A stretch of 64,000 nucleotides of DNA from Sphyrna mokarran. Taxonomy: Eukaryota. Made by a program: the position numbers and the translations under genes. Shown in pieces: positions 665 to 63,352 of this stretch; the first letter of the stretch is position 1; each line of letters opens with the position of its first letter. The DNA lies in assembly GCA_024679065.1 (NCBI GenBank), contig JAGIQG010000008.1, forward strand, positions 53,630,001-53,694,000. The letters run 5' to 3'. Under the pieces are notes generated by a model, which searched no databases, was not told where the DNA came from, and saw only the letters and a program-made list of their open reading frames with translations.

Positions 665-787
665 CTGAACAATTCTTTCCATCTCCAGTATATCCAGCCT
701 TACACACACATTGGAAAGAGCCGGGGCTGTTAAAACAGGAGGCTGAGCTGTGACAGTCGTGGCTTCCACTTTGACATTCATTCATAT
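665..787 (-). CDS. EGF type A exon 1 (calcium-binding EGF)
   Basis: 123 nt, AG/GT, DMNEC...GDGKNCS. Confidence 0.9.
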
Positions 788-3700: not shown

Positions 3701-6700
3701 ATCTGACATCTTGCAATTTGATCACAATGATTATAAAAGAATAGGAAATGAAAATATGTGTCAATGGGAATATTCAGTGTCAGTTACCAGTACAATTCCT
3801 TCCATCTCCAGTATATCCAGCCTTACACACACATTGGAAAGAGCCGGGGCTGTTGAAACAGGAGGCTGAGCGGTGACAGTCGTGGCTTCCACTTTGACAT
3901 TCATTCACATCTGAAGTTGGAAAGAAAGGAAGAGTTCATTGGAGGATCCTGAGCTTTGACAACATTAAACTCTCTACATGCACCCAGATTTAGGTTTGAA
4001 TCACATGATTCTAGAAGAACAATTATCTATAATATCCAGAAGTAGTGAGCAATAGGATCACAGAGTGCCCACTTCTGACAGGCTGTGCTATTTGGACAGA
4101 TTCAAAATTAGTTAAATGATTATTCTCAGATCTTCACTCCTCTCTTGGAGAGAATTGTGTACGGCAGTGGAATGATTTTCAGTTGGACAGGTTGTGATGT
4201 GAATACTCCCTCCAAGGTCATAACTACTTAAATCAGCAGGTACTACTGCAGTGAAGACCTTCATCCCAGTGTCCACCTCAGTGTGCAGACTTAAACATTT
4301 CCATGTGTGGGAATCCAGGATTCTGAGGCACTGGGAAAAGAAGGTAAGGAGCTATCCCTCTCCCCAGATAATGCGGGGTGCCAATCAACAACTTGTGGAG
4401 ACCTCATCCAATGTGTCAATGATCATGTCATAGATCCAACAGGAATTATCAGTGGGATGTCTCATTATGAGGGAAATCACAGTCTGGTGTAAAACTTATC
4501 AATCCTTTTTTCAATGGCAAAGCAGACTACAGAACAGATGCTTTGATCCCACCCCTGTCTTGGAAGTTGACAAAATCGCCAGTCCTGTATGGAAGAAGTA
4601 CCTTCGGTTCATTCCCCAATGGGTTCAATGATTCCCATACACACCTGTACAGACAGATCCATTCCAGGTGTAGCCAGTCACACAGGAGCATTTGAAGCTT
4701 CCATTCACCTGGGTACAGGAGGCATTGGGTCCACATGGATTGTTCACACACAGATCAATAACTGCAGACAGGAAAAGAGTTGGTTTAGACAAAGTCACAG
4801 TGCTGGTCTTTTACATCCTAAAAATATGTAACTGGTGAATTTTCATTCCCCTGGATATTTTACCACTTTTCTTTCTTGGTCTGTGGAATTTGCTGATCAC
4901 TGGAACATCTACAATTCCCTGTAATGATCTTATGTTTCAGAGCCGTAAAATCGCAAAGTCGCCATCTCATCATAGAGGTCAAATTGTGAAATGTGCGAGA
5001 GCAAAATTGGACTCTTCTACAATGGTATCTTGATCATTACTCCTTCTCACTGTTGACGTTGCCATTGGCCGTGGAACTATAACTGGGTGAAGATAAGCAG
5101 CTTTAGTTTGGACAAAGTGAGACAGTTGGACAATGTTAAGACATAGCACTGGCCTTAAACTCTCCATGTATTTTTACATTGGACTTAGCTAAGTTGGGGA
5201 AATTATTTTCCAAGTTTGAACTTGTATCAGAGTTTGAGTTGTATCTGATTTTATCCTTTAGCTTCCCCACTTCCTTACTCAGCAAAACATTTTACTTGAC
5301 AAGCCTAATCGTTTTCGAGGCAGCTGATAAACCTCTTCACTCCCCAACATTTTATTACTGTCGCCAAAGAAATCCTCCAAGTCAATCGTTTGGTGAACAC
5401 AGTGAGCAGCTACATCAAATAGACCAAGAGGTTTCTGCGTACGAACCCATTCCATGCTAGAATAAACCCCCAGACATTACGGCATACAAATTAATAATAA
5501 AGTATTCAGAACGAAGAAGAAAATGAAGATTTTTTTCCCTAGCCGACTCAGTAACAGTTACCTGTACAGTTCCTTCCATCTCCAGTATATCCAGCCTTAC
5601 ACACACATTGGAAAGAGCCGGGGTTGTTGAAACAGGAGGCTGAGCTGTGACAGTCGTGGCTTCCACTTTGACATTCATTCACATCTGAAGTAGAGAAGAA
5701 AAGAGAAGACTTCATTGGAGGACTTTCAACTGTTTCAATCTTAAATACTCCAACAAATCCAGATTTAGGCTTCAACCACATGACCATTCCCGCATGGTCT
5801 AGTTTTGAATTTGTCAAAATTTCCGGTCCTGTACAGAAGCAGTAATTTCAGTTCATTCCCCAATGGGTTCAATAATTCCCATCACACAGCTGTACAGAAA
5901 GATCCATTCCAGGTGTGGCCAATCATACAGGAGCATCTGAAGCTTCCATTCACCTGGGTACAGATGGCATTGGATCCACACGGATTGTTCATACACACGT
6001 CAATAACTGCAGCTATAGTGAAAATATAGGTGGTTTAGACAAACATAGCTGAATAATAGCACAAATAATGTGTTCACTTCAAAATGTCCAATTTTCTACA
6101 GATTCCCTGGGCTCAGGCGCAACCAAAACAGGAGAATGTTCACTACGTTCTGTGACGGAGCATTTGAAATTCTACATTCGGGAGCAATTATCACAATGCT
6201 CCCATGAGGAAACTGAATAAAGTTGAGCACCTTGGGAGAGGACAATGTATTTGCTCAATGAGGATTGAACATTGGGCCAATTTTTAACCATTGGTTAAAA
6301 TGAACTTATTGCTGAGCTTTCCAACATACTAATTGGTAAAAGTGTTTACTTTGTATCTGAAATCAATTTTGAGACAAACACAAATATTTCAGAAATTAGA
6401 TACATTTCTTCATTCCTAAACATTTAAGAATTATCACTAAAGGGATCTTCCCAGTGACTTTGTTAGCTCAGACAGTCAGCAGGTATGTTATATAGACAAA
6501 GATGTTTCTGAATGTGATTCCTATTCCAGTCCAGAGCAGACACCCAAATATTGTGGGTACAAATTCAAAAGAGATGGAAATGTGATGATTTGTCACTAGG
6601 AAGATTCAATATCTTTTACCTGAACAGTTTCTTCCATCACCAATATATCCAGCCTTACACACACATTGGAAAGAGCCGGGGCTATTGAAACAGGAGGCTG

Positions 6701-9700
6701 AGCTGTGACAGTCGTGGCTTCCACTTTGACATTCATTCACATCTGAAGTTGAGAAGAAAGGAAGAGGTCATTGAGGGATCTCCAGCTTTTTCAATCTTCA
6801 ACTTTCTACATGCCCAAATTTAGGCTTGAAGAACACGTCTCTTGGAGAACAATTGGAGTGCCCACGTCTGACATGCTCAGCCCTTTTGTGGTTCTACATT
6901 TTCTAGTCAGTAGCTGGTGACACAAATAAATAAACTTTAAACTCTTTATTGTTGGATTTTCATTCCTCCCTTGAAGAGAATTGTGTGTGGCAGTGGAATG
7001 ATAGTCAAGCTGATTAACAGTCAGACAGATTGTGATGTGAATGCTCCTTCCAAGGTCATAACTATTTCAATCAGTAGCTCCTGCTGCACTGTAGACTTCC
7101 ATCCCAATGTCCACCTCATTTAACTCAGTGTCAATCACTCCCATGTGTGGGAATCCAGTATTCCAAGGCACTGGGAAAAGGAAGTAAGAAAATTTTTATC
7201 TGAAAATGATTTTACACTGAAGTCATCTTATTCATGTTGTGTTTAAACAACTACATTCATTTTATACCCACAGTTATTGATGTGTGTGTGAACAATCCGT
7301 GTGGACCCAATGCCTCCTGTATCCAGCAAATTTTCTCCCTGCTGAGACCATGCTGGGTGCAGTGCAACACTGTGTAGAAACTGTCCAACCCCTCACCCAG
7401 TGAGTCAGTGTCTGCCTCTTAGCATTATCAGGAAGTATCAGTGAGATGTTTCATTGGGAGGGGAAGCATAATGGCTGCAATGTTCCAGCCATTCGTGCCG
7501 ATGGGATTCTATGGTCCCAGGGCTGTACAATGGAGATGTGCTGAGTCAGATTCTCTGTTCTCGCTTGCAGTGGTGGTGGGGCAAGAACAGCTGGGAAATT
7601 CTGGGCAACCTGGTTACTAAACATAATAAATCATTTCTTCAAAGATGAAGCAAATTTCAGAATGTACACCTTAATCCTACTCCTGATCTGGTTTGGAACT
7701 TGACAAAATCTCCAGTCCTGTATGATAGCAGTAAATTCAGTTCATTCCCCAATGGGTTCAATGATTCCCATCACACACCTGTACAGACAGATCCATTCCA
7801 GGTGTAGCCAGTCACACAGGAACATCTGAAGCTTCCATCTCAGTGATACTTCCTGTCAATGTTAAGAGACGGACACTGACTCACTGGATGAGGGGCTGGA
7901 CAGTATCTGCATAGTGTTGGACTGCACCCAGCATGGTCTCAGCAGGGAGAAAATTTGCTGGGTACAGGAGATACTGAGTCCAAAAGGATTGTTCACACAC
8001 ACATCAATAACTGTGTGTATAAAATGAATGTAATTGTTTACATAATAAGATCACTTCAATGTGGAATCATTTTCAGATAAAGAGAACAGCTTTAAGTGAG
8101 GTAGATGCAGTCAATTAAATGAAAAGGAAACTTTAACCTGAATGCCTTTCAGATACATGGAACATTTTCAACCCTTCAGAATGAGATGTGGAATACACAC
8201 AGTTATCTCCCTGCTATTTCTCTTTGATCAGAATTCAGTTAATGTTCCATTTTCTATCCAATGACACATTGAGCAGTGAAATCTTTTCAATCACCATACA
8301 CCTCTCAGCATGTTACAATTCAGAATGCTAAAATGACTGCTTCTGAAATCCCAGCGGGTCCCGCTGTATATGGTTGGATCATCCAGACCAGGAATTGTCA
8401 ACATGTGCCTGGAATAAACTCTGAGAACTTTCAGTTTCCTCAAAAAGAAACAAAAGAAATTAAAATGGAAAAATTTAACTCCAAATAGATTCAGTATCAG
8501 TTACCTGTACAATTCCTTCCATCTCCAGTATATCCAGCCTTACACACACATTGGAAAGAGCCGGGGCTGTTGAAACAGGAGGCTGAGCTGTGACAGTCGT
8601 GGCTTCCACTTTGACATTCATTCACATCTGAAGTTGCAAAGAAAGAAAGAGTTTATTAGAGAATCGCAGCTTTGTCAATATTAAATTATCTACCATTACA
8701 TCTAGATTTAGTCTTGAATAACATGAATCTTGGAGAACAATCAGTGCCCACTAATGGCAACCTTTGCCATTTGGTGGATTTACATTTCTTGTCAGTAGCT
8801 TGTGAAACTAATAAATAAAGTTTAAATTCTATTATTGTTCTAACTTCACTCTTCCTTGGTGAGAATTATGTGTGACAATGGAATGATTTTCAGGATGATT
8901 AACAGGTTCTGATGTGAATGCTCCCTCCAAGCTACTGCTGCAGTGAAGACTTCCATCCCATTGCCCACTCATTTACATTGTTTCAATATGTGGGAATCTG
9001 ATATATTGGGAAAAGCAGGAAATTTCCTCTTCCCCACACATTGCTGGGTACAAGTTGTAGAGACCTTCAATGCACTCCCCCTCCTCACCACATTGAGTCA
9101 CTTTTCATGTCTTAGCCCTATCAGGGGCAGCAGGATGTCTCATTGTGAGGGAGATCACAATCTGATGCTAAATTTATCAATCCTTTGTCCAATGGCAAAA
9201 CAAAACTACAGAACACATGTTTTGATCCCACCTCTGTCCTGATCTGATTTGGAACTTGACAGAATCTCCAGTCCTGTATGGAAGCAGTAAGTTCAGTTCA
9301 ATGATTCCCATCACACACCTGTACAGACAGATCCATTCCAGGTGTAGCCAGTCACACAGGAACATCTGAAACTTCCATTCACCTGGGTACAGGAGGCATT
9401 GGGTCCACACGGATTGTTCACACACATGTCAATAACTGCAGAGAGGAAAATGAAAGAGAAGTTTTAAGCACAATGCAGCTGAATAAGATTGCCTCAGTCC
9501 AGAAAAAGAATCATATACAGATGGCACAGCACCCAGTTGGGGTGATGCACTCAATTACAAGATGGCTACCTGGTTACCTCTTAGTAACACGATGCAGTTT
9601 TTAACCTTTCAGTGTGATATTTTTGAAACACTCAGTTCCCTCTGTACAATTTTATTACTCAGGGTTACTGCCTCAGGAAAGGTTCCATTTTCTGTCAAAA

Positions 9701-48700: not shown

Positions 48701-51700
48701 GGATTCAGTTAATGTTCCATTTTCTATCCAATGACACATTGAGGCAGTGAAACCTTTTCAATCACCGTACACTTCTAAGCATGTTACAATGTGGAATGTT
48801 AAAATCACTGTCTCTGAAGAGCCAGCTGGTCCAGGCACGGTGGTTGGGATCATTTAGACCAGGAATTGTGAGAACATGCCTGGGATAAACTCTGGGATCT
48901 TGCAATTTCCTCAGTTGAGTACAAAAGAAATTAAAAGGGAATATTAACCCCAAATGGATTCTGGATCAATTACCTGTACATTTCCTTCCGTCGCCAGTAT
49001 ATCCAGCCTTACACACACATTGGAAAGAGCCGGGGCTGTTGAAACAGGAGGCTGAGCTGTGACAGTCGTGGCTTCCGCTTTGACATTCATTCACATCTGA
49101 ATTTGAGAAGAAAGGAAGACTTCATTGGAAGATCCCCAGTTTTGTCAACATTAAACTGTATACACATACAGATTTTGGCTGGAACCACATGACTCTCGGA
49201 GACCAATCGAGTGCCCAATTTTAACAGGCTCTGCCATTTTGTGTGTTTACACTTTCTAGCCAGCAGATTGTCACACAAATAAATAAACTTTAAATTCTAT
49301 TATTGTTGTATCTACACTCCTCCTTTGGAGAGGATTGTATGTGACAGTGAAATAATTTTCAGGCCGATTAACAGTTGGACAGGTTGTGATGTGAATGCTC
49401 CCTCCAAGGTCATAACTATTTCAATCAACAGTTACGGCTGTAGTGAAGACTTCCATCCCAGTGTCCACCTCATTTGAGCTCAGTGTCAATCACTCCAATG
49501 TGAGGGAATCCAGTATTCCAAGGTACTGGGAAATAGAACTAAGGAAATTTCCCCCCCTACTGAGACCATGCTGAGTAAACACTGTCCAACCCCTCACCCA
49601 GTGAGTCAGTGTCCATCTCTTAACATTGTCAGGAAGTGTCAGCGGGATGTTTCATTGGGAGGGGAAGCGTAATGGCTGCAATTTTCCAGCTGTTCATGCC
49701 GATGGGATTCTCCACTCCCAGGGCTGTGAATGGAGATTTGCTGAGTTAAATTCTCCATCGTCGCTTGCAGCGACAGCAGGGCAAAAACGGCTTGGAGTCT
49801 CTGGCCAAGCTGAATACTAAACATCTTTAAATCATTGTTTCAAGGACAAAGCAAACTTCAGGATGTACACCTTGATCATACTCCTGTCCTGGCCTGATTC
49901 GGAAATTGACAAAATCTCCAGTCCTGTATGGAAGCAGTAACTTCAGCTCAATTCCCAATGGGTTCAATGATTCCCATCACACACCTGTACAGACAGATCC
50001 ATTCCAGGTGTAGCCAGTCACACAGGAACATCTGAAGCTTCCGTCCTGCTGGGTACAGGAGGCATTAGGTCCACACGGATTGTTCATACACACGTCAACA
50101 ACTGTGGATATAAAATGAATGAGATTTTTTAAACTCAACATGAATACAAACTCTTCAATGAGGAACTTCTTTCAGATAAAGAGTAAACAGCTTTAAGTGA
50201 GGGAGATGTAGTCAATTGAATGAAAAGGAAACTTTAACCCGAATGCCTTTCAGATACATGGGATAATTTTGAAACCTTCAAAATGAGGTGTGGATCAGGC
50301 ACAGTTATTTCCCTGCTATTTCTCTCTGCTCAGGATTCAATCAGTGTTCCATTTTCTTTCCAATGACATATTGAGACAGAGAAACCTTTTCAATCTCTGT
50401 ACATTTCCCAACATGTTACAATTCAGAATGTTAAAATATCTCCCTTCTGAAATCCCAGCAGGTCCAGGCACTGGATCGAGCCATGAATTGTAAAAACAGG
50501 CCTGGGATAAATTCCAAGACCTTGCAATTTCCTCCATAAGACGCTAAAGAAGTTAAAAGCAAATATTTAACCCCCAGATAGATTCTGGATCAGTTACCTG
50601 TACAATTCCTTCCATCTCCAGTATATCCAGCCTTACACACACATTGGAAAGAGCCGGGGCTGTTGATACAGGAGGCTGAGCTGTGACAGTCGTGGCTTCC
50701 ACTTTGACATTCATTCACATCTGAAGTTGAGAAGAAAGGACGAGTTCATTGGAGGATCTCCAGTTTTGTCAACATTAAACTATATACAAATCCAGATTTA
50801 GGCTGAAACCACATAACTCTCAGAGAACAATCAAGTGCCCAATTTTAAAAGGCTCTGCCATTTTGTGAGTTTATACTTTCTAGCCAGCAGATTGTCACAC
50901 AAATAAATAAACGTTAAATTCTATTATTGTTGTATCTACACTCCTCCCTTGGAGAGAAGCGTGTGTGACAGTGGAATAATTTTCAGGCCGATTAACAATC
51001 GGACAGGTTGTGATGCGAATACTCCCTCCAAGTTACAACTATGTCAAATTAGCAGTTACTGCTGTAGGGAAGACTTCCAACCCAGTATCCATCTCATTTG
51101 CGCTCAGTGTCAATCACCCCATGTGTGGGAACCCAGGATTCCAAGGCACTGGAAAAAATAGGTAAGAAAATTTTCCCCCTACTGAGACCATGCTGAGTGC
51201 AGTCCAACACCATGTAAACACTGTCCAACCCCTTACACAGTGAGTCAGTGTCCATCTCTTAACATTGACAGGAAGTGTCAGAGGGATGTTTCATTGGGAG
51301 GGGAATCATAACAGCTGGAATTTTTCAGCTGTTTGTGTTGACAGGATTCTCTGCTCCCAGGGCAGTGAACGGAGATTTGCTGAGTTAGATTCTCCATCCT
51401 CGCTTGCAGCGACAGCAGGGCAAGAATGGCTTGGAACCTCTGGCCAAGCTGAATATTGAACATTTTTAAATCATTGTTTCAAGGGCAAAGCAAATTTTAG
51501 GATGTGCATCTTGATCACACTCGTGTCCCTGACTGGTTTGAAACCTGACTGAATCTCCAGTCCTATATGGAAGCAGTAAGTTCAGTTCATTCCCCAATGA
51601 AGTCAATGATTGCCATCACACACCTGTACAGACAGATCCATCCCAGGTGTAGCCAGTCACACAGGAGCATCTGAAGCTTCCATTTACCTGGGTACAGGAG

Positions 51701-54700
51701 GCATTGGGTCCACACGGATTGTTCATACACATGTCAATAATTGCAGCTATTGTGATAATATAGACGGTTTATACAAACCAAAGAATAGCTGAATAATCGC
51801 ACAAAAAATGGCCTTCATTTTACCAACACGGACACCCTAAAATCGGGGTCGGTCAATCTTAAAGAACAGCATTCACCGTTGGCCTCGGGTGGCTGTGACA
51901 GTAAAACCAGCACAAATATGGTCACTACAAAGCCTCCAATTTCTCACAGAGTTCCTGAGATAGGGAGATTGAAAACAAGAGAATGTTCCCTCCATTCTGT
52001 GAAGGGGCATTTGAAAATCTAGGCGAGGACACTGAATTTGCTCAATGAGGATTAACTATTGGACTTATTTTTAACCAGTTCTTTTTTTAACCAGTGCCTT
52101 GTTAGATTTTGCAATTTACTTTCCAATTTTCTTTTGGTATAAAAGTTTGTCCTGTGAATGAGCTTATTGCTGAGCTTTCCAATTTACTAATTCAGTTTAA
52201 AGTGTTTCATTTGTATCTGGAATCAATTTTGAGGCAATCATAAATATTCTGGACAACAGACAAAAATCCTCATTCCCAAACATTTTAGAATGATCACTAA
52301 AGGGATCTTCCCAGTGAGTCCGTTAGCTCAGACAGTTGACAAGTATGTCATATAGACAAGGATGTTTCTGGATGTGATTCCTATTCCAGCCCTGAACAGG
52401 CATCCTGATATTGTGGGTATAAATTAAAAAGAGATGGACACTGGATGATTTGCCACTGGGAGGATTCAGTGTCAGTTACCTGTACAATTCCTTCCATCTC
52501 CAGTATATCCAGCCTTACACACACATTGGAAAGAGCCGGGACTGTTGAAACAGGAGGCTGAGCTGTGACAGTCGTGGCTTCCATTTTGACATTCATTCAC
52601 ATCTGAAGTTGAGAAGAAAGGAAGAGTTCGTTGGAGGATCCCGAGCTTGGTATTAAACTCTCTACACATACCAGATTTAGTCTTGAATCACATGAATCTA
52701 GGACAGCAATCTTCTCCAGATATCTTGAATGAGCAAGGTGTAAAATCACAGAGTGCCCATTTCTGACAGGCTATGCCATTTTGTGGATTGACACATTCAA
52801 AATCAGATTATGCTCAGATCTTCATTCCTCCCTTTGTGAGAATTATGTGTGGCAGTGGATTGATTTTTTTTTCAGGCTGATTAACCGTCTTATAGGTTGT
52901 GATGTGAATGCTTCCTCCAAGGTCATAACTACTTAAATCAGCAGCAATGCTGTAGTGAAGACTTCCATCTCAGTGTCTATCTCAATGTCCAGACTTAAAC
53001 ATTCCCATGCGTGGGAATCCAGGAATACTAGGCATTGGGAACAGAAGGAAAGCAAATATCCCTCTTTCTGGACCATGCAAGATGCACATGAACAATTTAT
53101 AAAGACAGTTAGAATTCCACCCAATAAGTCACTCTCCGTATCTTAGATCTAATAGGAACTCTCAGTGGAAATTCTCATTGTGAGGGAAATCACAGTCTGA
53201 CGTAAAACTTTTCAATTCTTTCTCCAATGGCAAAGCAAACTACAGAACATATGTTTTAATCCCACCCCTGTCCGGGTCTGGTTTGAAACTTGACAGAATT
53301 GCCAGTCCTGTATGGAAGCAGTAAGTTCAGTTCATTCCCCAATGGGTTCAATGATTCCCATCACACACCTGTACAGACAGATCCATTCCAGGTGTAGCCA
53401 GTCACACAGGAGCATCTGAAACTTCCATCCTGCTGGGTACAGGAGGCATTGGGTCCACACGGATTGTTAGCACACACGTCAATAACTGTGAATATAAAAT
53501 GAATGAGATTGTTTAAACACATCATGAATTAAGATCACTTCAATGAGGAACTGTTTTCAGATAAACAGAAAACAGTGAAGGAGATGGAGTCAATTAAATG
53601 AAAAGGAAACTTTAACTGAATGCCTTTCAGATAAAAAGGACAGTTTTGAAATCTTCAGAATGACGTGTGGATCACGCACAGTTATCTCTCTGCCATTTCT
53701 CTCTGCTCAAGATTCAGTTAATATTCCATTTTCTTTCCAATGACATATTGAGACAAAGAAACCTTTTCAATCTCTGTACACTTCCCAAGGCATTACAGTT
53801 CAGAATGTTAAAATGTCTCCCTTCTGAAATCCCAGCTAGACCAGGCACTGTATCCGGACCAGGAATTGTAAGAACAGGCCTGGGATAAATTCCAAGACCT
53901 TGCAATTTCCTCAATTAGATACAAAAAAAATTAAAAGGAAATATTTAACCCCCAAATGGATTCAGTATCAGTTACCTGTACAATTCCTTCCATCTCCAGT
54001 ATATCCAGCCTTACACACACATTGGAAAGAGCCGGGGTTGTTGAAACAGGAGGCTGAGCTGTGACAGTCGTGGCTTCCGCTTTGACATTCATTCACATCT
54101 GAATTTCAGAAAAAAGGAAGAATTCATTGGAGGATCCCCAGCTTTGTCAGTATTAAACTTTGTACACATCCAGATTTAAGCTTGAACCATATGACTCTTG
54201 GAGAGCAATCAAAGTACCACTTCTAAAAGGCACCGCCATTTTGTGAGTTTACACTTTCTAGCCAGCAGCGTGTGACACAAATAAATAAACTTTAAATTCT
54301 ATTATTGTTGATTCTTCACTCCTCCCTTGGAGAGAATTGTGTGTGGCAGTGGAATAATTTTCAGGCTGATTAATAGTCAGATAGGTTGTGATGTGATGCT
54401 CCCTCCAAGATCATAACTGTTGAAATCTGCAGCTGCTGCTCCAGTGAAGACTTCATCTCAGTGTCCACCTCATTTGTGCTGTTTCAATGTGTGGGAATCC
54501 AATACACTGGGAAAAGCAGGAAATTTCCCCATCTCCAGACATTGCTGGGTACAATTTGTAGAGACCTTCCATGCAGCCCCCCCCCCCCCCCCCCCCCACC
54601 ACCACATTGAGTCACTTACATGTCTTAGCCCCGTCAGTGGCAGTGGGATGTCTCATTGTGAGGGAAATCACAGTCTGATGGTAAACTTCTCAATCCTTTC

Positions 54701-57700
54701 TCCAATGGCAAAGCAAACTATAGAACACATGTTTTGACCCCACCCCCGTCTCTGTGTGATTTAGAATGTGACAGAATCTCCAGTCCTGTATGGAAGTAGT
54801 AAGTTCAGTTCATTTCCCAATGGGTTCAATGATTCCCATCACACACCTGTACAGACAGATCCATTCCAGGTATAGCCAGTCACACAGGAGCATCTGAAGC
54901 TTCCATTCACCTGGGTACAGGAGGCATTGGGTCCACACGGATTGCTCATACACATGTCAATAACTGCAGGTAGAAAATCAGAGAGATGTTGTAAGCATCA
55001 TACAGTTGAATAAGATTGCCTCAGTACACAAGGGTAATCACATAAAAATGGAGCAGCGTCCTGGTGGGGCGGTGCACTTAATTGCAAGATGGCAACATTA
55101 TCCTGGTTACCTGTTAGATATATGAAACAGTTTCAAACCATCAGAGGGAGCAATCTGGAACACTCAGTTCTCTTCATGCAATTTTATTACTCAGGGTTAT
55201 TGCTTCAATAAAGGTTCCATTTTCAATCCAGCAAATCATTTGCAGAGTGACACATTTCAGGTTTGGAACATCTCTAATCATGTTACCACTCAGAATGTTA
55301 TATTTCCCCTTTTCCAAAAGCCCAGATGATCCGGGCAGATGCATCATCCAGACCAGGAAAGTGATGATATTGATTCAAGTGTAATTTGACATCTTGCAAT
55401 TTGCTTACGATGATTATAAATGAATAAGAAATGGGAATATTTTTCACTGGGATGATTCAGTATCAGTTACCTCTACAATTCCTTCCATCTCCAGTATATC
55501 CAGCCTTACACACACATTGGAAAGAGCCGGGGCTGTTGAAACAGGAGGCTGAGCTGTGACAGTCGTGGCTTCCACTTTGACATTCATTCACATCTGAAGT
55601 TGAGAAAAAAAGAGTTCATTGGAGGATCCCCAGCTTTGTCAACATTAAACTTGTACACACTCAGGTTTAAGCTTGAACCACATGACTCTTGGAGGACAAT
55701 CAGAGTGCCCACTTCTGGCAGGCTCCGCCATTTTGTGGTCTTGCACTTTCTAGTCAGAAGCTTAGAACATAGAACATAGAACATAGAACAGTACAGCTCA
55801 GTACAGGCCCTTCTGCCCTCAATGTTATACCGATCTTTGTCCGAAACCAAAATCAAGCTATCCCACTCCCTATTGTTCTGGTGTGCTTCATGTGCCTATC
55901 CAATAACCATTTGAAAGTTCCTAAAGTGTCCAACTCCACTATCACAGCAGACAGTCCATTCCACACCCCAACCACTCTCTGAGTAAAGAATCTACCTCAG
56001 ACATCCCTCCTATATCTCCCACCATGAATTTTATAGTTATGCCCTCTAGTAACAGCTACATCCACCCAAGGAAGTAGTCCCTGAAGGTCCATTCTATCTA
56101 TCCCCCGCATCATCATATAAACCTCCATGAAGTCGCCTCTCAACCTCCTCCATTCCAAAGAGAAAAACCCTAGCTCTCTCAAGTTTTCTTCATAAGATCT
56201 ACCCTCCAAACCATGCAGCATCTTAGTATCTGAAGTTGACAAGAAAGGAAGAAAGTTCATTGATCGATCTGCATCATTTTCAGTGTCAAACACTCGACAA
56301 ATCCAGATTTAGGCTTTGACCACATCACCATCCCTGCGTGGTTTGGTTTGGAACTTGACAAAATCTCCAGTCCTTATGGAAGTAGTAACTTCAGTTCATT
56401 TCCCAATGGGTTCAATGATTCCCATACACACAGCTGTACTGACAGATCCATTCCAGGTGTAGCCAGTCACACAGGAGCATCTGAAGCTTCCATCCTGCTG
56501 GGTACAGGAGGCATTGGATCCACACGGATTGTTCACACACATGTCAATAACCGTGGATATAAAATGAATGTGATTGTTTAAACACAAATGAATCAAAACT
56601 CTTCAATGAGGAACTGTTTTCAGATAAACAGAAAACAGCTTTAATTGAAGGAGATGCAGTCAATTAAATGAAAAGGAAACTTTAACCTGAAGTTCTTTCA
56701 GATTCTTGGGACAGTTTTCAACCCTTCAGAATGAGATGTGGAGCACACACAGTTATCTCCCTGCTATTTCTCTCTGCGTAAGATTCAGTTAATGTTCCAT
56801 TTTCGATCCAATGACATACTGAGGCAGTAAAACCTTTTCAATCACTGTACACCTCCTAATATGTTACAATTCAGAATGTTAAAATGACTGCCTCTGAAGT
56901 ATCAGCTGGTCCAGGCACTGTGGGGTTGGATCATCCAAACCAGGAATTGTGAGAACATGCCTGGGATAATCTCCAAGATCTTGCAATTTCCTCAATTAGA
57001 TACAAAAGAAATTAAAAGGAAATATTTAACCCCCAAATGGATTCCGTATCAGTTACCTGTACAATTCCTTCCATCTCCAGTATATCCAGCCTTACACACA
57101 CATTGGAAAGAGCCGGGGCTGTTGAAACAGGAGGCTGAGCTGTGACAGTCGTGGCTTCCACTTTGACATTCATTCACATCTGAAGTTAAGAAGAAAGGAA
57201 GAGTTTATTAAGGATCTCCAGTTTTGTCAATCTTTCTACTGTTACACCCCAGATTTAACCTCGAGACTTGTAAAAGAACCAGATTCAAGATTGTTTCTCC
57301 AACCCGAGAGCGCCCAAGATTCACTGGGTATGTTTCCAAGAATATGAGAAAAAATCATAACAGAAAGAAAGTAAACATGTGGTTGATTTGTTCCAATGGC
57401 AACTGTTTATCCAGGTCTAGAAAAACTGGCAGTAATATCCCAGCAAAGATCAATAAAGATTTCTCAATAATTCTGTTCAAGAAGTGTGGAACCTTCTCAG
57501 TCTCTTGTGGAACTTAGCTGGTCTGAATTGTTCTATTTATTTCTTCACCAACAGATTCCCTTTTAAGAAAGAATACAAGTTAACCAAAGCAAATGTCAAT
57601 GTTTGATCATTCCCCAGGAATGTGAATGTGAAAATAAATAATTAACAATTCTTCAGTTACCTGTACAATTCCTCCCATCTCCAGTATATCCAGCCTTACA

Positions 57701-60700: not shown

Positions 60701-63352
60701 ATTGGAAAGAGCCGGGGCTGTTGAAACAGGAGGCTGAGCTGTGACAGTCGTGGCTTCCACTTTGACATTCATCCACATCTGAAATTGGGAAGAAAGGATG
60801 AGTTCATTGGAAGATCCCCAGATTTGTCAATCTTAAACTTTCGACGTATGTCCAGATTTAGGCTTGAAACATATGACCTTTATAAAGGATGAATTGGTCC
60901 AATCTGTTGTTTCAATGGCCAAAGGCTCACATGCTCACTATAGGAAACTCCCAGTTTCCCTTCTTGCTCTGCACTGTGTTACTGAACTCAGATAGTGCAG
61001 CAGCTGGGTGTTAGAAATGATCTCTGACCTCTCTGGCTCGGAGACAAAATCATCAATCATTCCTACTCCTGATTGGAGCCCAGTTACTCCAACTGGAAAA
61101 TGTATGTCTGCAAACACAGAATGAGGACAGAATCAGATCCAGTTGTTGGACTCATTCAGAAAGGGTCGGATATTCTGGCCGTGCTCACCCCAAAACTAGA
61201 AAAGCCCGCTCGAGATCAATGAATCTTTGCATGGTCCTTGTCTTGCCCACTACAATTCCTGTGGTGGGTCAGATGGTATAATTCCACCCATGTTGTCTGT
61301 GATGATATTTGAAGAATTATTTTGGTGGGATCTGTGTAACTGTATCCCACCAAGGACAGAGTCAATGGTATCAGTGGGTGAATACTCTGCTGAAATGGAG
61401 GGGGTATCAGTAACCCTACTGTGTATCCTCTTAGAGCAAGGTTCTTCCAATTCCCTCAGCAGGTTCTGACTGCTCTTCAACAATTCAAATCTTTATTTCG
61501 AGCTTATATCCAAAAAGAATGAAAGGCAATTTTGAACATGAGTCGTGAAGGGTCATTCCACACGTTCCAGATATATATGTTTCTCTCATCTTCCTGAGCA
61601 GGACATAATTTAACAGATAGACCCTGATATCTTCATAAAGTCATAATTCTTCATGTATGAAGGTGGCCTCTTTCAATATAATGTTTGTCTGTTCATATTA
61701 AAAGTTTCATCATCAATAAAGCAAACTCCAGAACTCATACCCTGATCCCACCTGTGCCCCGCTCTGGTTTGGAACTTGACAATGTCCTGTATGGAAGCAG
61801 TAAGTTCAGTTCATTGCCCAACGAGTTCAATGATTCCCATCACACACCTGTACAGACAGATCCATTCCAGGTGTAGCCAGTCACACAGGAGCATCTGAAA
61901 CTTCCGTCCTGCTGGGTACAGGAGGCATTGGGTCCACACGGATTGTTCACACACAAATCAACAACTGCAGATAGGAAACGCATGAGATGCTTTAGGGAAA
62001 TTACAATATTTCTGAATGGAATCCAAAGATCTGGGACTGTGGTGGCAAAGTTGTTGTTCTTAAAGATCAAGAGGAAATTCAAACAATGACAGGAAGAAAA
62101 CAAATCTGGAGCCTCTGAAATACATCAAGCATCTCTCACGTTTTCGGTGGGAGATTTGTGGAACACTCACACTTCTCTCTGAGCTAATGTAGAATCACAG
62201 AGTGCTTACACTCAAAATATTGCTTTTTAGCCCACTGAGCCTGTGCCAGCTACTGGAACGAGAATGTAGTTAATCTTACTTTACTGGCATAAGGCTGTGT
62301 GGCCCTTTATCACATTCAGTTTACTGCCTGAATGGCTGTAGATTAGGAGAGGGAACCTGGGTATCCTTATGCATCAGTCGTTGATAGTAACCATACAGGT
62401 ACAGAAGGTGGTAAAGAAGGCAAATGCTATGTTGACCTTCATTACAAGAGGTTTCAAGCACAGGGGCAGGGAATGTGTTTTTGCAATTATGTAGGGCTTT
62501 GGTGAGGCCACATCAAGAATATTAGTCTCCTTTTCTGAGGAAGAATATTCTTGCTCTCAAGGGAGTGCATCGAAGGTTTACCAGGCTGATTCCGGGGATG
62601 GCAGGATTGATGTATGAGAAATTGACTAGGCTGGAGTTCAGACGAATGGGGGAGAATCTGATAGAGACTTATAAAATTCTAACAGAATTAGACAGGGTAG
62701 ATGCATGGAGGATATTCCCAACAGTGGGGGAGTCCACTCACCTAATGAATGGGCAAAGCCCTGAAAGCTAGTGGCTTTTGCTACCAAATAAACCTGTTGG
62801 ACTTTAACCTGGTGTTGTGAGACTTCTTACTGGGGGAGTCCAGAATCAGGGGTCACATTCTGAGGATTCGGAGAAGATCATTTAGGACAGAGGTGAGGAG
62901 ATATTCCTGCACTCAAAGAGTGGTGAGACTGTGGAACTCATTACCACAAGAAGTAGTTGATGCCAAAACACTGAATGTATTCAGGAGGCATCTAGATATA
63001 GCACTTGGAGGCAGGATTAGGCTATTAAGTCGGGGACCTTCAGCCATGATTGTAATGAATGGCAGAACAGGCTTGAAGTACCAAATGGTCTCTCCTGCTC
63101 CAATCTTCCATGTTTCTATGTTTTTATCTTATCCCCATAGTCCTGGAATATCTTTCCCTTCAGTCAATTACCAATTTATATTGAAGGTCAGTCATCTGTA
63201 CAATTCTTTCTATCTGAAAAAGGTCAACAGTGTCGAATGTTAACAATACTTACAGCTTTTGGTTTGAAAATACAACATTGAACTAATGTCCTTTTCTCCA
63301 GACACGGTTTTCACAGCAACAGTGACAACGTATGGGGTTGACTCATTCAGAT
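665..63352 (-). CDS. Internal part of a giant multi-exon extracellular protein gene: tandem cbEGF/EGF arrays separated by FN3 domains (both ends outside window)
   Basis: 58 apparently intact AG/GT-bounded phase 1-1 exons (32 type A, 21 type B, 5 FN3 halves) join into one open frame of ~2,360 aa; six-cysteine EGF spacing and FN3 W/Y/L-x-P-x-T-x-Y motifs. Confidence 0.9.
992..1108 (-). CDS. EGF type B exon 1
   Basis: 117 nt, [19 protein letters not shown]...GSVCT. Confidence 0.88.
1723..1845 (-). CDS. EGF type A exon 2
   Basis: 123 nt, AG/GT, 6 Cys. Confidence 0.9.
2431..2568. mobile_element. MITE-like element carried in one intron subtype (further copies near 7472, 29197, 40693, 48052, 49673, 51313, 58370, 59984)
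   Basis: Imperfect ~18-bp terminal inverted repeats tggctgcaattttccagc / gctgggaaattctggcca; absent from the sister intron subtype. Confidence 0.5.
3168..3284 (-). CDS. EGF type B exon 2
   Basis: 117 nt, AG/GT, 6 Cys. Confidence 0.88.
3788..3910 (-). CDS. EGF type A exon 3
   Basis: 123 nt, AG/GT, 6 Cys. Confidence 0.9.
4645..4761 (-). CDS. EGF type B exon 3
   Basis: 117 nt, AG/GT, 6 Cys. Confidence 0.88.
5562..5684 (-). CDS. EGF type A exon 4
   Basis: 123 nt, AG/GT, 6 Cys. Confidence 0.9.
5890..6006 (-). pseudogene. EGF type B pseudo-exon 4 (donor GT>CT)
   Basis: ACAG|CTGTGT instead of ACAG|GTGTGT; extra substitutions ([12 protein letters not shown]). Confidence 0.75.
6620..6742 (-). CDS. 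EGF type A exon 5
   Basis: 123 nt, AG/GT, 6 Cys. Confidence 0.88.
7195..8081. repeat. ~250-bp inverted repeat (arms ~7195-7448 and ~7836-8081)
   Basis: Left arm holds a plus-strand half copy of exon B with its acceptor; right arm holds an inverted intron piece inside exon B. Confidence 0.9.
7779..8010 (-). pseudogene. EGF type B pseudo-exon 5, interrupted
   Basis: Net +115-nt inverted insertion (7840-7955) shifts the frame; Cys2>Phe (NPFGLSISC). Confidence 0.88.
8505..8627 (-). CDS. EGF type A exon 6
   Basis: 123 nt, consensus sequence. Confidence 0.9.
9319..9435 (-). CDS. EGF type B exon 6
   Basis: 117 nt, AG/GT. Confidence 0.88.
9942..10064 (-). CDS. EGF type A exon 7
   Basis: 123 nt, TAG/GT. 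Confidence 0.9.
10645..11039. mobile_element. Penelope-like (PLE) derived insertion with inverted ends
   Basis: ~165-bp inverted arms (10680-10845 / 10880-11039) ending agtaagaagtctcacaacaccaggttaaa; hammerhead-like cores; absent from the paralogous site near 61340. Confidence 0.65.
11585..11701 (-). CDS. EGF type B exon 7
   Basis: 117 nt, AG/GT, QQDG variant. Confidence 0.88.
12777..12875 (-). CDS. FN3 domain 2, C-terminal half exon
   Basis: 99 nt, phase 1-1, [15 protein letters not shown]...FQTKS; polypyrimidine-CAG acceptor and GTAAGT donor. Confidence 0.88.
13718..13906 (-). CDS. FN3 domain 2, N-terminal half exon
   Basis: 189 nt, [19 protein letters not shown]...YSISY...TSVILT; AG/GT. 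Confidence 0.9.
14012..14110 (-). CDS. FN3 domain 1, C-terminal half exon
   Basis: 99 nt, [14 protein letters not shown]...VTTLP; AG/GT. Confidence 0.9.
15041..15420 (-). mobile_element. Degenerate DeuSINE (SacSINE1-like)
   Basis: Recognised from memory by the segment cagcaagatc..cagcaatgaga..tgaccaga.aatctgtttt; an inverted relative lies at ~16221-16690. Confidence 0.55.
15632..15927 (-). mobile_element. HE1/V-SINE tRNA-derived SINE
   Basis: Minus strand starts ggcacagtagcacagtggttagca (A box) ... cccgggttcaattcc (B box), then V-domain gtggagttttcacattctcccc. Confidence 0.75.
16221..16690 (+). mobile_element. Degenerate DeuSINE (SacSINE1-like), interrupted near 16480-16567
   Basis: ctccagagact.gag..caaaatc...gctgacact, tctctggtgtactggccaacattcatccctca; reverse-complement similarity to 15041-15420. 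Confidence 0.55.
16800..16982 (-). CDS. FN3 domain 1, N-terminal half exon
   Basis: 183 nt, [22 protein letters not shown]...SLHY...TETLIT; TAG/GTAAG. An alternative in-frame CAG lies 12 nt inside. Confidence 0.85.
17492..17614 (-). CDS. EGF type A exon 8
   Basis: 123 nt, consensus. Confidence 0.9.
19175..19291 (-). CDS. EGF type B exon 8
   Basis: 117 nt, AG/GT. Confidence 0.88.
20361..20533. mobile_element. Short PLE-derived palindromic insertion with 13-bp target-site duplication
   Basis: 65-bp arms 20361-20425 / 20435-20499; aagattcaaagtt repeated at 20349-20361 and 20534-20546; no insertion in the paralog near 37010. Confidence 0.75.
20684..20706 (-). pseudogene. Truncated type A exon remnant (3' end plus donor)
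   Basis: cagttacctgtacaatttcttacatctcca then an abrupt switch to intron sequence. Confidence 0.75.
20800..20922 (-). CDS. EGF type A exon 9
   Basis: 123 nt, CKTGYAG variant. Confidence 0.88.
21660..22335 (-). mobile_element. Old degenerate CR1-like LINE fragment with nested PLE-derived piece (~22075-22253)
   Basis: Decayed RT C-terminal similarity; paralog at ~27010-27612. Confidence 0.55.
22166..22204 (-). ncRNA. Candidate minimal type I hammerhead ribozyme (PLE type)
   Basis: UUCAC CUGAAGA A GGC-GAUAAUA-GCC GAAA GCUC GCGAG: core boxes intact, 3-bp stem II, stem I with one mismatch. Confidence 0.5.
22588..22710 (-). CDS. EGF type A exon 10
   Basis: 123 nt, AG/GT. Confidence 0.9.
23213..23335 (-). 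CDS. EGF type A exon 11
   Basis: 123 nt, AG/GT. Confidence 0.9.
23548..25870 (-). mobile_element. Old degenerate CR1-group LINE, split by a younger insertion
   Basis: Minus-strand RT motifs [10 protein letters not shown] (~25630-25660) and MFADD (~25557-25572); sequence is continuous across the nested element. Confidence 0.75.
24315..25536 (+). mobile_element. Young 5'-truncated CR1 LINE; ORF2 reverse-transcriptase C-terminal fragment (ORF 24330-25445, 371 aa)
   Basis: [43 protein letters not shown]; no stops; (TGTTCTA)n tail; atgat duplicated at both flanks. Confidence 0.95.
26518..27612. repeat. ~490-bp inverted duplication of a degenerate CR1 fragment (arms ~26518-27005 / ~27113-27612)
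   Basis: gttgtaacttggatgtgtaattggtt... versus ...aaccaattacacatccaagttacaac; the paralog at 21.7-22.3 kb has only one arm. Confidence 0.88.
27862..27984 (-). CDS. EGF type A exon 12
   Basis: 123 nt, AG/GT. Confidence 0.9.
28483..28605 (-). CDS. EGF type A exon 13
   Basis: 123 nt, AG/GT. Confidence 0.9.
29514..29636 (-). CDS. EGF type B exon 9, acceptor shifted 6 nt upstream
   Basis: Canonical CAG>CAA; in-frame TAG 6 nt upstream gives a 123-nt exon. Confidence 0.7.
29790..30525 (+). mobile_element. Rex1/Babar-type LINE 3' fragment, degenerate
   Basis: [10 protein letters not shown]...[16 protein letters not shown]...[16 protein letters not shown]...[10 protein letters not shown]; (aaatc)n tail. 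Confidence 0.8.
30878..31000 (-). CDS. EGF type A exon 14
   Basis: 123 nt, AG/GT. Confidence 0.9.
31766..31882 (-). CDS. EGF type B exon 10
   Basis: 117 nt, TAG/GT. Confidence 0.88.
32697..32819 (-). CDS. EGF type A exon 15
   Basis: 123 nt, consensus. Confidence 0.9.
34486..34602 (-). CDS. EGF type B exon 11
   Basis: 117 nt, AG/GT. Confidence 0.88.
35113..35235 (-). CDS. EGF type A exon 16
   Basis: 123 nt, AG/GT. Confidence 0.9.
36816..36835 (-). pseudogene. Deleted type B exon remnant
   Basis: tgtacagacagattcattc joined to sequence matching ~20152 onward of the paralog. Confidence 0.75.
37163..37285 (-). CDS. EGF type A exon 17
   Basis: 123 nt, AG/GT. Confidence 0.9.
38160..38276 (-). 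CDS. EGF type B exon 12
   Basis: 117 nt, AG/GT. Confidence 0.88.
38523..38645 (-). CDS. EGF type A exon 18
   Basis: 123 nt, AG/GTAAGT. Confidence 0.9.
39374..39490 (-). pseudogene. EGF type B pseudo-exon 13 (acceptor CAG>TGG)
   Basis: atatccatgg|TTATT instead of atatccacag|; NKPCGPIA substitutions. Confidence 0.75.
39990..40112 (-). CDS. EGF type A exon 19
   Basis: 123 nt, AG/GT. Confidence 0.9.
41002..41118 (-). CDS. EGF type B exon 14
   Basis: 117 nt, AG/GT. Confidence 0.88.
41615..41737 (-). CDS. EGF type A exon 20
   Basis: 123 nt, AG/GT. Confidence 0.9.
42618..42740 (-). CDS. EGF type B exon 15, acceptor shifted 6 nt upstream
   Basis: CAG>CAA; in-frame TAG upstream. Confidence 0.7.
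43567..43689 (-). CDS. EGF type A exon 21
   Basis: 123 nt, AG/GTAAGT. Confidence 0.9.
44441..44557 (-). CDS. EGF type B exon 16
   Basis: 117 nt, AG/GT. Confidence 0.88.
45030..45152 (-). CDS. EGF type A exon 22
   Basis: 123 nt, AG/GT. Confidence 0.9.
45892..46008 (-). CDS. EGF type B exon 17
   Basis: 117 nt, AG/GT. Confidence 0.88.
46515..46637 (-). CDS. EGF type A exon 23
   Basis: 123 nt, AG/GT. Confidence 0.9.
46808..47660 (-). mobile_element. 5'-truncated CR1 LINE
   Basis: ORF 47129-47602 [15 protein letters not shown]...RPRLEYCVQ; TGTTCTA tail at ~46810. Confidence 0.9.
48367..48483 (-). pseudogene. EGF type B pseudo-exon 18
   Basis: Acceptor CAG>CTG, 1-nt loss at the donor, Cys2>Arg. 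Confidence 0.85.
48974..49096 (-). CDS. EGF type A exon 24
   Basis: 123 nt, AG/GT. Confidence 0.9.
49985..50101 (-). CDS. EGF type B exon 19
   Basis: 117 nt, AG/GT. Confidence 0.88.
50598..50720 (-). CDS. EGF type A exon 25
   Basis: 123 nt, AG/GT. Confidence 0.9.
51624..51746 (-). CDS. EGF type B exon 20, acceptor shifted 6 nt upstream
   Basis: CAG>CAA; in-frame TAG upstream. Confidence 0.68.
52480..52602 (-). CDS. EGF type A exon 26
   Basis: 123 nt, AG/GT. Confidence 0.9.
53369..53485 (-). CDS. EGF type B exon 21
   Basis: 117 nt, AG/GT. Confidence 0.88.
53976..54098 (-). CDS. EGF type A exon 27
   Basis: 123 nt, AG/GT. Confidence 0.9.
54577..54597. repeat. Poly-C tract (C21)
   Basis: Direct count. 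Confidence 0.9.
54847..54963 (-). CDS. EGF type B exon 22
   Basis: 117 nt, AG/GT. Confidence 0.88.
55471..55593 (-). CDS. EGF type A exon 28
   Basis: 123 nt, AG/GT. Confidence 0.9.
55763..56228 (-). mobile_element. CR1 LINE 3' fragment (paralog of 46808-47660, cut short by a deletion)
   Basis: (agaacat)3 tail; [32 protein letters not shown]. Confidence 0.9.
56434..56550 (-). pseudogene. EGF type B pseudo-exon 23
   Basis: Acceptor CAG>CGG, donor GT>CT, Cys6>Ser. Confidence 0.88.
57057..57179 (-). CDS. EGF type A exon 29
   Basis: 123 nt, consensus. Confidence 0.9.
57661..57783 (-). CDS. EGF type A exon 30
   Basis: 123 nt, AG/GT. Confidence 0.9.
58674..58790 (-). CDS. EGF type B exon 24
   Basis: 117 nt, AG/GT. 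Confidence 0.88.
59275..59397 (-). CDS. EGF type A exon 31
   Basis: 123 nt, DVDEC variant. Confidence 0.9.
60293..60409 (-). CDS. EGF type B exon 25
   Basis: 117 nt, AG/GT. Confidence 0.88.
60656..60778 (-). CDS. EGF type A exon 32
   Basis: 123 nt, DVDEC variant. Confidence 0.9.
61848..61964 (-). CDS. EGF type B exon 26
   Basis: 117 nt, AG/GT. Confidence 0.88.
62312..63122 (+). mobile_element. Degenerate CR1 LINE 3' fragment
   Basis: [29 protein letters not shown]; tttatc at both flanks; absent at the paralogous site ~12040. Confidence 0.85.
62737..62830 (+). mobile_element. Short PLE-terminus insertion nested in CR1
   Basis: 12-bp target-site duplication tgggggagtcca (62725-62736, 62831-62842); matches 10945-11039. 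Confidence 0.75.
63254..63352 (-). CDS. FN3 C-terminal half exon (paralog of 12777-12875)
   Basis: 99 nt, [42 protein letters not shown]; not in the ORF track. Confidence 0.88.

Follow-up and report, generated by a model that had tools for sequence, protein, structure and literature searches.

A giant EGF-rich membrane protein gene of the shark Sphyrna mokarran and its assignment to a long-form branch of the uroplakin-2/3 superfamily

Introduction

Runs of calcium-binding EGF (cbEGF) domains are found in fibrillin, LTBP, Notch, and MEGF proteins, and UMODL1 and TIE combine EGF with FN3 domains. The stretch of DNA analyzed here, hereafter the window, comprises 64,000 nucleotides of the 2.77-Gb genome of the shark Sphyrna mokarran (contig C1437, positions 53,630,001-53,694,000) and carries dozens of closely similar EGF exons interrupted by FN3 exons, which raises the question of what protein such an array encodes and whether this protein has relatives. 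A preliminary description, made from the sequence of the window alone, recognized no vertebrate protein with this architecture and distinguished it from Notch, fibrillin, UMODL1, and TIE. Both judgments stand: our literature search found no description of such a protein, and the domains typical of the named families are absent from Pfam scans of the orthologs identified below, which also have a different anchor. None of the TB, LNR, ankyrin, ZP, SEA, WAP, and kinase domains was found in these scans. The possibilities that the gene encodes a ZP protein, an adhesion GPCR, an RPTP, UMODL1, TIE, or fibrillin were ruled out given that the characteristic domains are missing.

Results

Two kinds of EGF exons in the window

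Six-frame reading of the window yielded 57 reading frames of EGF type, all of them minus-strand (window positions 665-61964), which correspond to 57 whole-length exons of two kinds, type A of 123 nt (32 exons) and type B of 117 nt (25 exons), all in phase 1-1. Fifty of these exons are intact and flanked by AG and GT; this holds for all 32 type A exons, whereas 7 of the 25 type B exons lack AG or GT, and one additional B exon is interrupted by an insert (Table 1). Five FN3 exons, also in phase 1-1 and on the minus strand, divide the array, such that the exon order is half of an FN3 domain, 44 EGF exons (38 intact), two FN3 domains, and 13 EGF exons (12 intact). The type A sequence matches the Pfam family EGF_CA (E = 3.5e-12) and type B matches EGF_3, whereas the FN3 exons match Pfam fn3 weakly because each encodes half a domain. 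Across the whole gene described below, the calcium-binding consensus is present in all 80 intact A exons and in none of the 36 intact B exons, and the donor sites of the B exons are nonconsensus. Exon mapping and Pfam thus bear out the minus-strand array, the FN3 exons, and the uniform phase noted in the preliminary description; its count of 53 intact EGF exons, in blocks of 41 and 12, is replaced by the numbers given above. One intron contains a 381-aa reverse-transcriptase frame on the plus strand (window positions 24300-25442; Pfam RVT_1, E = 1.7e-24), which we take to be a fragment of a CR1-type LINE, and further fragments are located near window positions 47132-47629, 56000-56308, and 62526-63240.

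Table 1. Features of the window and of the gene that contains it (positions without a contig name are window positions)
Feature	Position	Strand	Remarks
Gene containing the whole window (1-64000)	C1437:53,417,700-53,762,567	-	Approximate span, ~345 kb; the window is its middle
D8C exon	C1437:53,762,567-169	-	Upstream of the window; next come eight diverged EGF exons, then the first module
FN3, second half	63254-63352	-	99 nt, phase 1-1; rest of the FN3 pair just beyond the window
EGF block 1	17492-61964	-	44 exons: 25 A (all intact), 19 B (13 intact)
Dead B exon	56434-56550	-	Acceptor and donor lost, 5 Cys
Dead B exon	51624-51740	-	Acceptor lost (AG to AA)
Dead B exon	48367-48483	-	Acceptor and donor lost, 5 Cys
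Dead B exon	42618-42734	-	Acceptor lost (AG to AA)
Dead B exon	39374-39490	-	Acceptor lost
Dead B exon	29514-29630	-	Acceptor lost (AG to AA)
FN3 domain 1, first exon	16800-16970	-	171 nt
FN3 domain 1, second exon	14012-14110	-	99 nt
FN3 domain 2, first exon	13718-13906	-	189 nt; fn3 E = 2.3e-5
FN3 domain 2, second exon	12777-12875	-	99 nt
EGF block 2, running past the window	665-11701	-	13 whole exons: 7 A (intact), 6 B (5 intact)
Rearranged B exon	7195-8081		Exon split by insert at 7779-8010; inverted partial copy at 7195-7448
Dead B exon	5890-6006	-	Donor lost
Last FN3, preceded by six further modules	C1437:53,467,398-53,466,318	-	Downstream of the window
Uroplakin-type exons (three)	C1437:53,458,515-351; 53,456,077-55,843; 53,453,918-839	-	Downstream of the window
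TM exon	C1437:53,449,207-075	-	Followed by about 11 tail exons, the last of which is tentative

The window is the middle of one gene

Mapping with the window exons and with orthologs, the dead exons being left out, produced a gene model in which 209 exons are joined to give a single uninterrupted frame, 9,174 residues long and with no stop. The modeled splice sites are canonical apart from one GC donor, which belongs to the GC-AG intron that follows the last FN3 exon (C1437:53,466,318, minus strand) and is supported by frame continuity and ortholog alignment. The model contains 137 EGF, 23 FN3, and 5 CUB-like domains and one D8C domain; five partial matches were excluded from the counts of intact and dead A and B exons, although one of them, a diverged N-terminal EGF exon, is present in the model. 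From 5' to 3', the gene encodes D8C, eight diverged EGF domains, eight modules, the last FN3, three juxtamembrane exons, the transmembrane (TM) exon, and the tail exons. The unit of the modules is B-(A/B)n-[EGF-EGF]-[CUB-EGF-FN3]-FN3-FN3, with the CUB-EGF-FN3 part absent from two modules, one ending in the window and one just below it, and CUB-EGF only absent from one other. Hence, the two EGF types and the FN3 pairs of the preliminary description hold inside the window but not for the gene as a whole, which includes further EGF types, mostly FN3 triplets, and CUB-like domains. The ectodomain spans ~8,700 residues with 270 N-glycosylation sequons and one RGD within the first EGF region, and the cytoplasmic tail ~445 residues. 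To our knowledge, a chain of ~9,200 residues with 137 EGF domains would rank among the largest predicted vertebrate single-pass proteins.

We conclude with high confidence that a single gene contains the entire window and that it encodes a functional type I (single-pass) membrane protein, a "long-form uroplakin." Given the decay of B exons (10 of 46 dead), the inclusion of all modeled exons remains a prediction. These features agree with the earlier view of a very long, rod-like, heavily glycosylated protein; a mucus or matrix protein, as had also been proposed, would not be expected to have the TM helix, conserved tail, and uroplakin-type anchor found here, and the protein is not secreted as such. 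Extension of the flanks, which the preliminary description had recommended, thus revealed a TM segment at the C terminus and none of the other C-terminal modules it had listed. At the other end, scans of the Sphyrna genome for the signal-peptide exon yielded weak candidates only; the lamprey, hagfish, and bichir models start with a hydrophobic leader, as judged by eye. A terminal exon near C1437:53,432,970 was considered and rejected, because the orthologs have additional tail exons. The region encoding the tail (C1437:53,422,250-53,447,375) is built of duplicated phase 2-2 exons with Gln/Thr/Gly-rich repeats, and the tail repeats of the chimaera protein weakly match a pentapeptide-repeat model. 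On a different contig (C335:75.96-76.01 Mb), there is a ~40-kb low-complexity repeat array with open frames of up to 646 aa; it was dismissed as a relative of the gene, its match to the catshark protein being due to tail composition only.

The membrane anchor is of the uroplakin type

For the C-terminal part of the catshark ortholog, the only sequence match in the PDB was uroplakin 3A (E = 2.4e-11), with four cysteines aligned. A structural model of the catshark anchor, computed from a 50-sequence alignment that included uroplakins (domain pLDDT mostly 70-95; a version from three sequences, with a pLDDT of 41.6, was set aside), retrieved uroplakin IIIa (8jj5_C, E = 4e-8) and 8jj5_B, both of them single-pass chains in the porcine uroplakin complex, as the top Foldseek matches, and the atlas clusters ranked first for the anchor were UPK3B/UPK3A. 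The UPK2/3 module has been defined by the intron phases 1,1,2,1,2, the cysteines C1-C4, and a C3-C4-NGPL motif (PMC5242461). The same succession of phases, over four exons, surrounds the juxtamembrane/TM region of the shark gene, and C1-C4 are present when aligned to UPK3A. The C3-Xn-C4-NGPL signature is degenerate in this shark and other elasmobranchs; NGPL is found in hagfish, reedfish, bowfin, and a Mustelus paralog, and NGQL in lamprey and a chimaera paralog. Thus, the protein shares with uroplakins 2/3 (UPK2a/b and UPK3a-d; PDB 8JJ5) the long FN3-like juxtamembrane module with its cysteines and phases, the RSxGMIVIT start of the helix, the lack of a catalytic domain and, with some short uroplakins, the tail motif Y-D/N-T-H, but its ectodomain of ~8,700 residues contrasts with the <200 residues, placed directly behind the signal peptide, of uroplakins 2/3 (PMC5242461).

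The R3 phosphatases PTPRQ, PTPRB, and PTPRJ differ in having one cytoplasmic PTP domain, which the shark protein lacks, and an ectodomain of FN3 domains only, whereas that of the shark protein consists mostly of EGF, CUB, and D8C domains. No PTP motifs (KNRY, WPD, or HCSAG-type) were found in the 150 kb downstream, PF00102 had no match at 44.3-77.9 Mb of C1437 among 150 scored candidates, and Pfam scans of the orthologs detected neither a phosphatase domain in the tails nor PTP_tm. Given an ectodomain far exceeding those of UPK2/3 and the missing R3 catalytic domain, we place the shark gene in the uroplakin-2/3 superfamily as a long-form branch not described before, with an EGF expansion that is extreme in this shark.

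A further comparison is offered by the Ciona NoCat protein which, as presented in PMC5242461, likewise has FN3 repeats, the juxtamembrane module, the helix, and a phosphatase-less tail, as well as a furin-type site after C2. Such a site, at the position where UPK2 is cleaved, is found in the long forms of lamprey, hagfish, and reedfish; shark long forms lack it, and in several of them RTKR immediately precedes the helix. Ciona NoCat differs in that its ectodomain, in the same source, comprises FN3 domains only, without EGF, CUB, or D8C, and its helix start lacks the uroplakin motif.

For phylogenetic analysis, the exons that correspond to the anchor in PTPRB, PTPRQ, a PTPRJ-like gene, and two short uroplakins were rebuilt from the Sphyrna genome, and a tree of 35 rows was inferred under LG+G4, with fragments of <175 residues, redundant shark rows, two long-branch uroplakins, and Ciona NoCat omitted. 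Long forms and uroplakins were separated from PTPRQ/B/J with support of 98/95; the support was 84/84 for the long forms, among which the Sphyrna sequence was nearest to catsharks, and 91/70 for the short uroplakins, and without PTPRQ the long-form clade received 98/92. Joining the long forms to PTPRQ was rejected (p-AU = 0.029), whereas joining them to UPK3A was not (p-AU = 0.21). By these sequence comparisons, the anchor is closer to uroplakins than to R3 phosphatases and forms its own branch, and a sister relationship of the long forms to the short uroplakins is moderately supported.

Orthologs from cyclostomes to holosteans

Searches with the second juxtamembrane exon identified four shark proteins with 63-75% identity, all uncharacterized. 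A profile of the anchor produced 63 protein hits among 1.84 billion representatives, which consist of long forms, fragments, and short uroplakin-sized proteins, with no full-length phosphatase among them; names were checked for 20 of the 63, and the other 43 do not exceed 338 residues and were short uroplakins where inspected. In two of the hits, the gene model contains a tandem pair of short uroplakins. The long forms include proteins of manta ray (3,481 aa), chimaera, bowfin, gar (2,513 aa), bichirs, lamprey (2,147 aa), and two hagfishes (up to 4,323 aa). A broader profile, with which the 7,998 best candidates among proteins of 420-2,000 residues were scored, added basking shark only. In neither search was a long form found in teleosts, lobe-finned fish, or tetrapods, which is suggestive of gene loss in teleosts and tetrapods.

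The orthologs have the same exon types and module order as the shark gene. In lamprey and hagfish, a single chain runs from the leader through D8C, EGF domains, CUB, EGF domains, and FN3 domains to the anchor, helix, and tail. Together with the D8C matches reported below, these chains indicate that both ends of the shark locus belong to one gene. The characterization of the protein as lineage specific is therefore contradicted by unnamed orthologs with the same domain order in hagfish, lamprey, sharks, bichirs, and holosteans; the lineage-specific part may be the A/B expansion only. Models of other sharks contain 5-10 EGF motifs, that of hagfish 61, and that of manta comprises four isoforms. 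The other elasmobranch models lack D8C and a signal peptide and so are probably incomplete. A different module appears expanded in each lineage, namely FN3 pairs in gar and bowfin, EGF-CUB-EGF-FN3 units in manta, and diverse EGF domains in hagfish; the holostean gene models may be partial.

A second paralog with a CUB-FN3-uroplakin-TM organization is present in Mustelus, chimaera, and the Sphyrna genome. In Sphyrna, it is located at C805:36,677,925-36,723,767 (signal-CUB-FN3-uroplakin module-TM), its main exons are 69-92% identical to Mustelus LOC144511928, and it groups with the long forms; the 60 kb of its flanks contained no recognizable gene.

Members of the family are split and misnamed in databases, where they appear as "fibronectin-like," "collagen XII-like," "mua-3-like," "uroplakin-3b," and "PTPRQ-like." Neither the gene nor its locus identifiers are described in the full-text literature searched, which mostly does not cover subscription journals. 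The diagnostic motifs of the long form are absent from the text supplements of PMC5242461 and PMC3922775, whose aligned layout may break motifs, and the matches in PMC5336234 are confined to its reference list.

The D8C tip, CUB-like domains, and tail motif

The D8C exon matches Pfam PF23283 above the cutoff (E = 6.3e-10) as well as uromodulin/GP2, and aligns with the N termini of the lamprey and hagfish orthologs with E values of 1e-30 and 1e-26, respectively; among longer proteins, no homolog was found in the 33 candidates scored. In uromodulin, GP2, and OIT3, D8C also adjoins EGF domains, but these proteins have a ZP module, for which the Pfam scans of the orthologs were negative, and a GPI anchor, whereas the shark protein has a TM segment and tail and presents D8C at the tip of a long rod. 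A sequon equivalent to UMOD N232 is retained. No sequon is found at the positions equivalent to UMOD N275 and GP2 N65, the sites of the high-mannose glycans that bind FimH, which weakens the case for a direct decoy role of the kind played by uromodulin and GP2 toward FimH (PMC8930769, PMC12212870).

The CUB-like domain is unscored by Pfam in the shark proteins but aligns with the Pfam-positive CUB domain of the chimaera paralog (E = 8e-10). About 12 residues past the helix, the motif Y-D/N-T-H is conserved from hagfish to gar; it is present in 10 of the 11 long or paralogous proteins examined and in 7 of 49 hits, mostly short uroplakins. The motif is likely a sorting or phosphorylation site.

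Type A exons are preserved and type B exons decay

At the DNA level, the mean identity of intact copies is 96% for type A and 92% for type B. The 80 A exons of the gene comprise 71 distinct sequences. Across the gene region, the 631 self-matches (minimum length 300 bp) have a median identity of 84%, with none at 99%, the top match inside the EGF array being 97.6% over 1 kb, and the assembly has no N gaps across 384 kb around the window. In a rough count against the consensus, not a codon model, pN/pS was 0.29 for A and 0.37 for B; on this sequence evidence, the array copies appear to be under purifying selection. The divergence of the copies and the purifying selection indicate that the array is not an assembly artifact, a possibility that the preliminary description had named among its refutations. 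Identity of the A consensus to copies elsewhere amounts to 88-97% for other sharks and 75-85% for manta ray; the near-identity of the copies thus reflects lasting constraint as well as duplication.

Dead exons in the whole gene are restricted to type B (10 of 46, against 0 of 80 A exons; Fisher p = 2e-5), so that the array clearly illustrates how exons are born and die: type A is fully preserved, whereas type B is decaying. An AG-to-AA acceptor change is common to three of the dead B exons in the window (Table 1), which makes it probable that exons already dead were carried along in later rounds of duplication. Two of the ten dead B exons, at C1437:53,727,056-172 and 53,614,721-841, have intact splice sites with a stop or a 4-nt frameshift inside, and would be poison exons unless skipped.

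Genomic neighborhood

The gene is flanked downstream by a convergent TIF1-family gene, the bromodomain exon of which scored 81 bits against TRIM33 and 67 bits against TRIM24, and upstream by an MFS transporter with weak family hits only, which is presumably SVOPL. In mammals, TRIM24 and SVOPL adjoin. One table row in PMC10415907 fits this adjacency. If the TRIM24/SVOPL interval holds, the gene would have been lost from that interval in mammals. The separate short uroplakin genes of Sphyrna are located at C1437:41.70 Mb and C794:39.55 Mb. The 125-Mb contig C1437 carries PTPRB-like (15.96 Mb), PTPRQ-like (20.6 Mb), UPK3A-like (41.70 Mb), and PTPRJ-like (78.4 Mb) genes besides the present one (53.4-53.8 Mb), an arrangement that fits old duplications within one linkage group.

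Discussion

With about even confidence in the barrier mechanism, we propose that the protein serves as a membrane-tethered glycocalyx rod, a barrier or spacer on wet epithelia. Short uroplakins, once paired with the tetraspanins UPK1a/1b in the ER, assemble into apical plaques (PMC10560298), and UPK1a and UPK1b are present in sharks (PMC3922775). By analogy, the uroplakin module and helix would pair with a UPK1a/1b-like tetraspanin, which would place the protein in the apical membrane. The calcium-binding EGF domains would stiffen the densely N-glycosylated chain, which, for assumed domain lengths, could measure roughly 0.4-0.5 micrometers when extended. The tethered rod, possibly shed, would then form the barrier or spacer over the epithelium, and its uromodulin/GP2-type D8C tip may meet microbes or luminal ligands. 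Given the symmetric phase 1-1 exons, the rod could grow by duplication of exons or modules, and dead exons could be skipped without a frameshift.

The same protein might, alternatively, act in adhesion by tethering cells to the matrix or to one another, in the manner of nematode MUA-3 or of fibrillin-type cbEGF rods, with tension passing through the tail. cbEGF, CUB, and FN3 are typical modules of adhesion and matrix proteins, and the long tail with its conserved proximal motif, the RGD, and the automatic name "mua-3-like" of the hagfish protein all point in this direction. That name, however, reflects EGF content only, Pfam found no vWA or integrin-type domain in the orthologs scanned, and both the anchor and the tip derive from apical-surface systems; we consider such a tether unlikely. 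Another reading, compatible with the long-form uroplakin explanation, treats the A/B array as a reservoir of cassettes, from which most transcripts would skip many EGF exons to encode shorter, length-variable proteins while type B decays. The uniform phase of the array exons, the nonconsensus B donors, the confinement of defects to B exons, the few EGF motifs in the models of other sharks, and the four manta isoforms are in line with it. Yet all A exons retain their two splice sites, the six cysteines, and the consensus for calcium binding, which would be surprising if they were rarely used, and the other elasmobranch models are probably incomplete, whereas the hagfish model is rich in EGF motifs, which makes this reading possible but doubtful.

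Gamete-recognition proteins usually evolve fast, whereas the copies here are under apparent purifying selection and identity between sharks is high, so that a role in gametes or the reproductive tract (egg surface or oviducal secretion) seems improbable, even though some uroplakins act in fertilization. In its favor, Xenopus UPK3 is tyrosine-phosphorylated at fertilization (PMC5242461), and roles of uroplakins in eggs have been described (PMC6340209). The region is also very repetitive and contains some dead exons, as would an assembly artifact or a pseudogene; but the gapless assembly, the divergence of the self-matches and of the A exons, the frame that is open throughout, and the exon types and module order common to the orthologs render this explanation scarcely credible.

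Returning to the long-form uroplakin, Chicote et al. (2017) proposed that uroplakins descend from a PTPRQ-like gene that lost its phosphatase and its remaining FN3 domains, the Ciona protein being the intermediate (PMC5242461). The family described here looks like the phosphatase-less, FN3-retaining intermediate predicted by that model. We tentatively suggest, with slightly less than even confidence, that the long form of the uroplakin ancestor survives in this family, which would be PTPRQ-derived and phosphatase-less, would have kept the FN3 stalk, and would be the sister group of the short uroplakins 2/3 as a whole. It would have gained the D8C-EGF-CUB extension before the split of cyclostomes and gnathostomes. 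As a giant glycocalyx rod docked to a tetraspanin, the protein would have persisted in hagfish, lamprey, cartilaginous fish, bichirs, and holosteans and disappeared from teleosts and tetrapods, with its length tuned independently in each lineage through EGF arrays (this shark and hagfish), CUB modules (manta), or FN3 arrays (gar and bowfin).

Uroplakins build the bladder barrier, and so far only short proteins and a single tunicate sequence have served to infer their origin. A uroplakin anchor combined with an FN3 stalk and no phosphatase, in a conserved vertebrate gene, provides a living test of the origin model and suggests that the first job of the anchor was to hold a large apical ectodomain. 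The combination of the D8C domain of uromodulin/GP2 with the uroplakin anchor further joins two modules of urinary and gut defense in one ancient protein.
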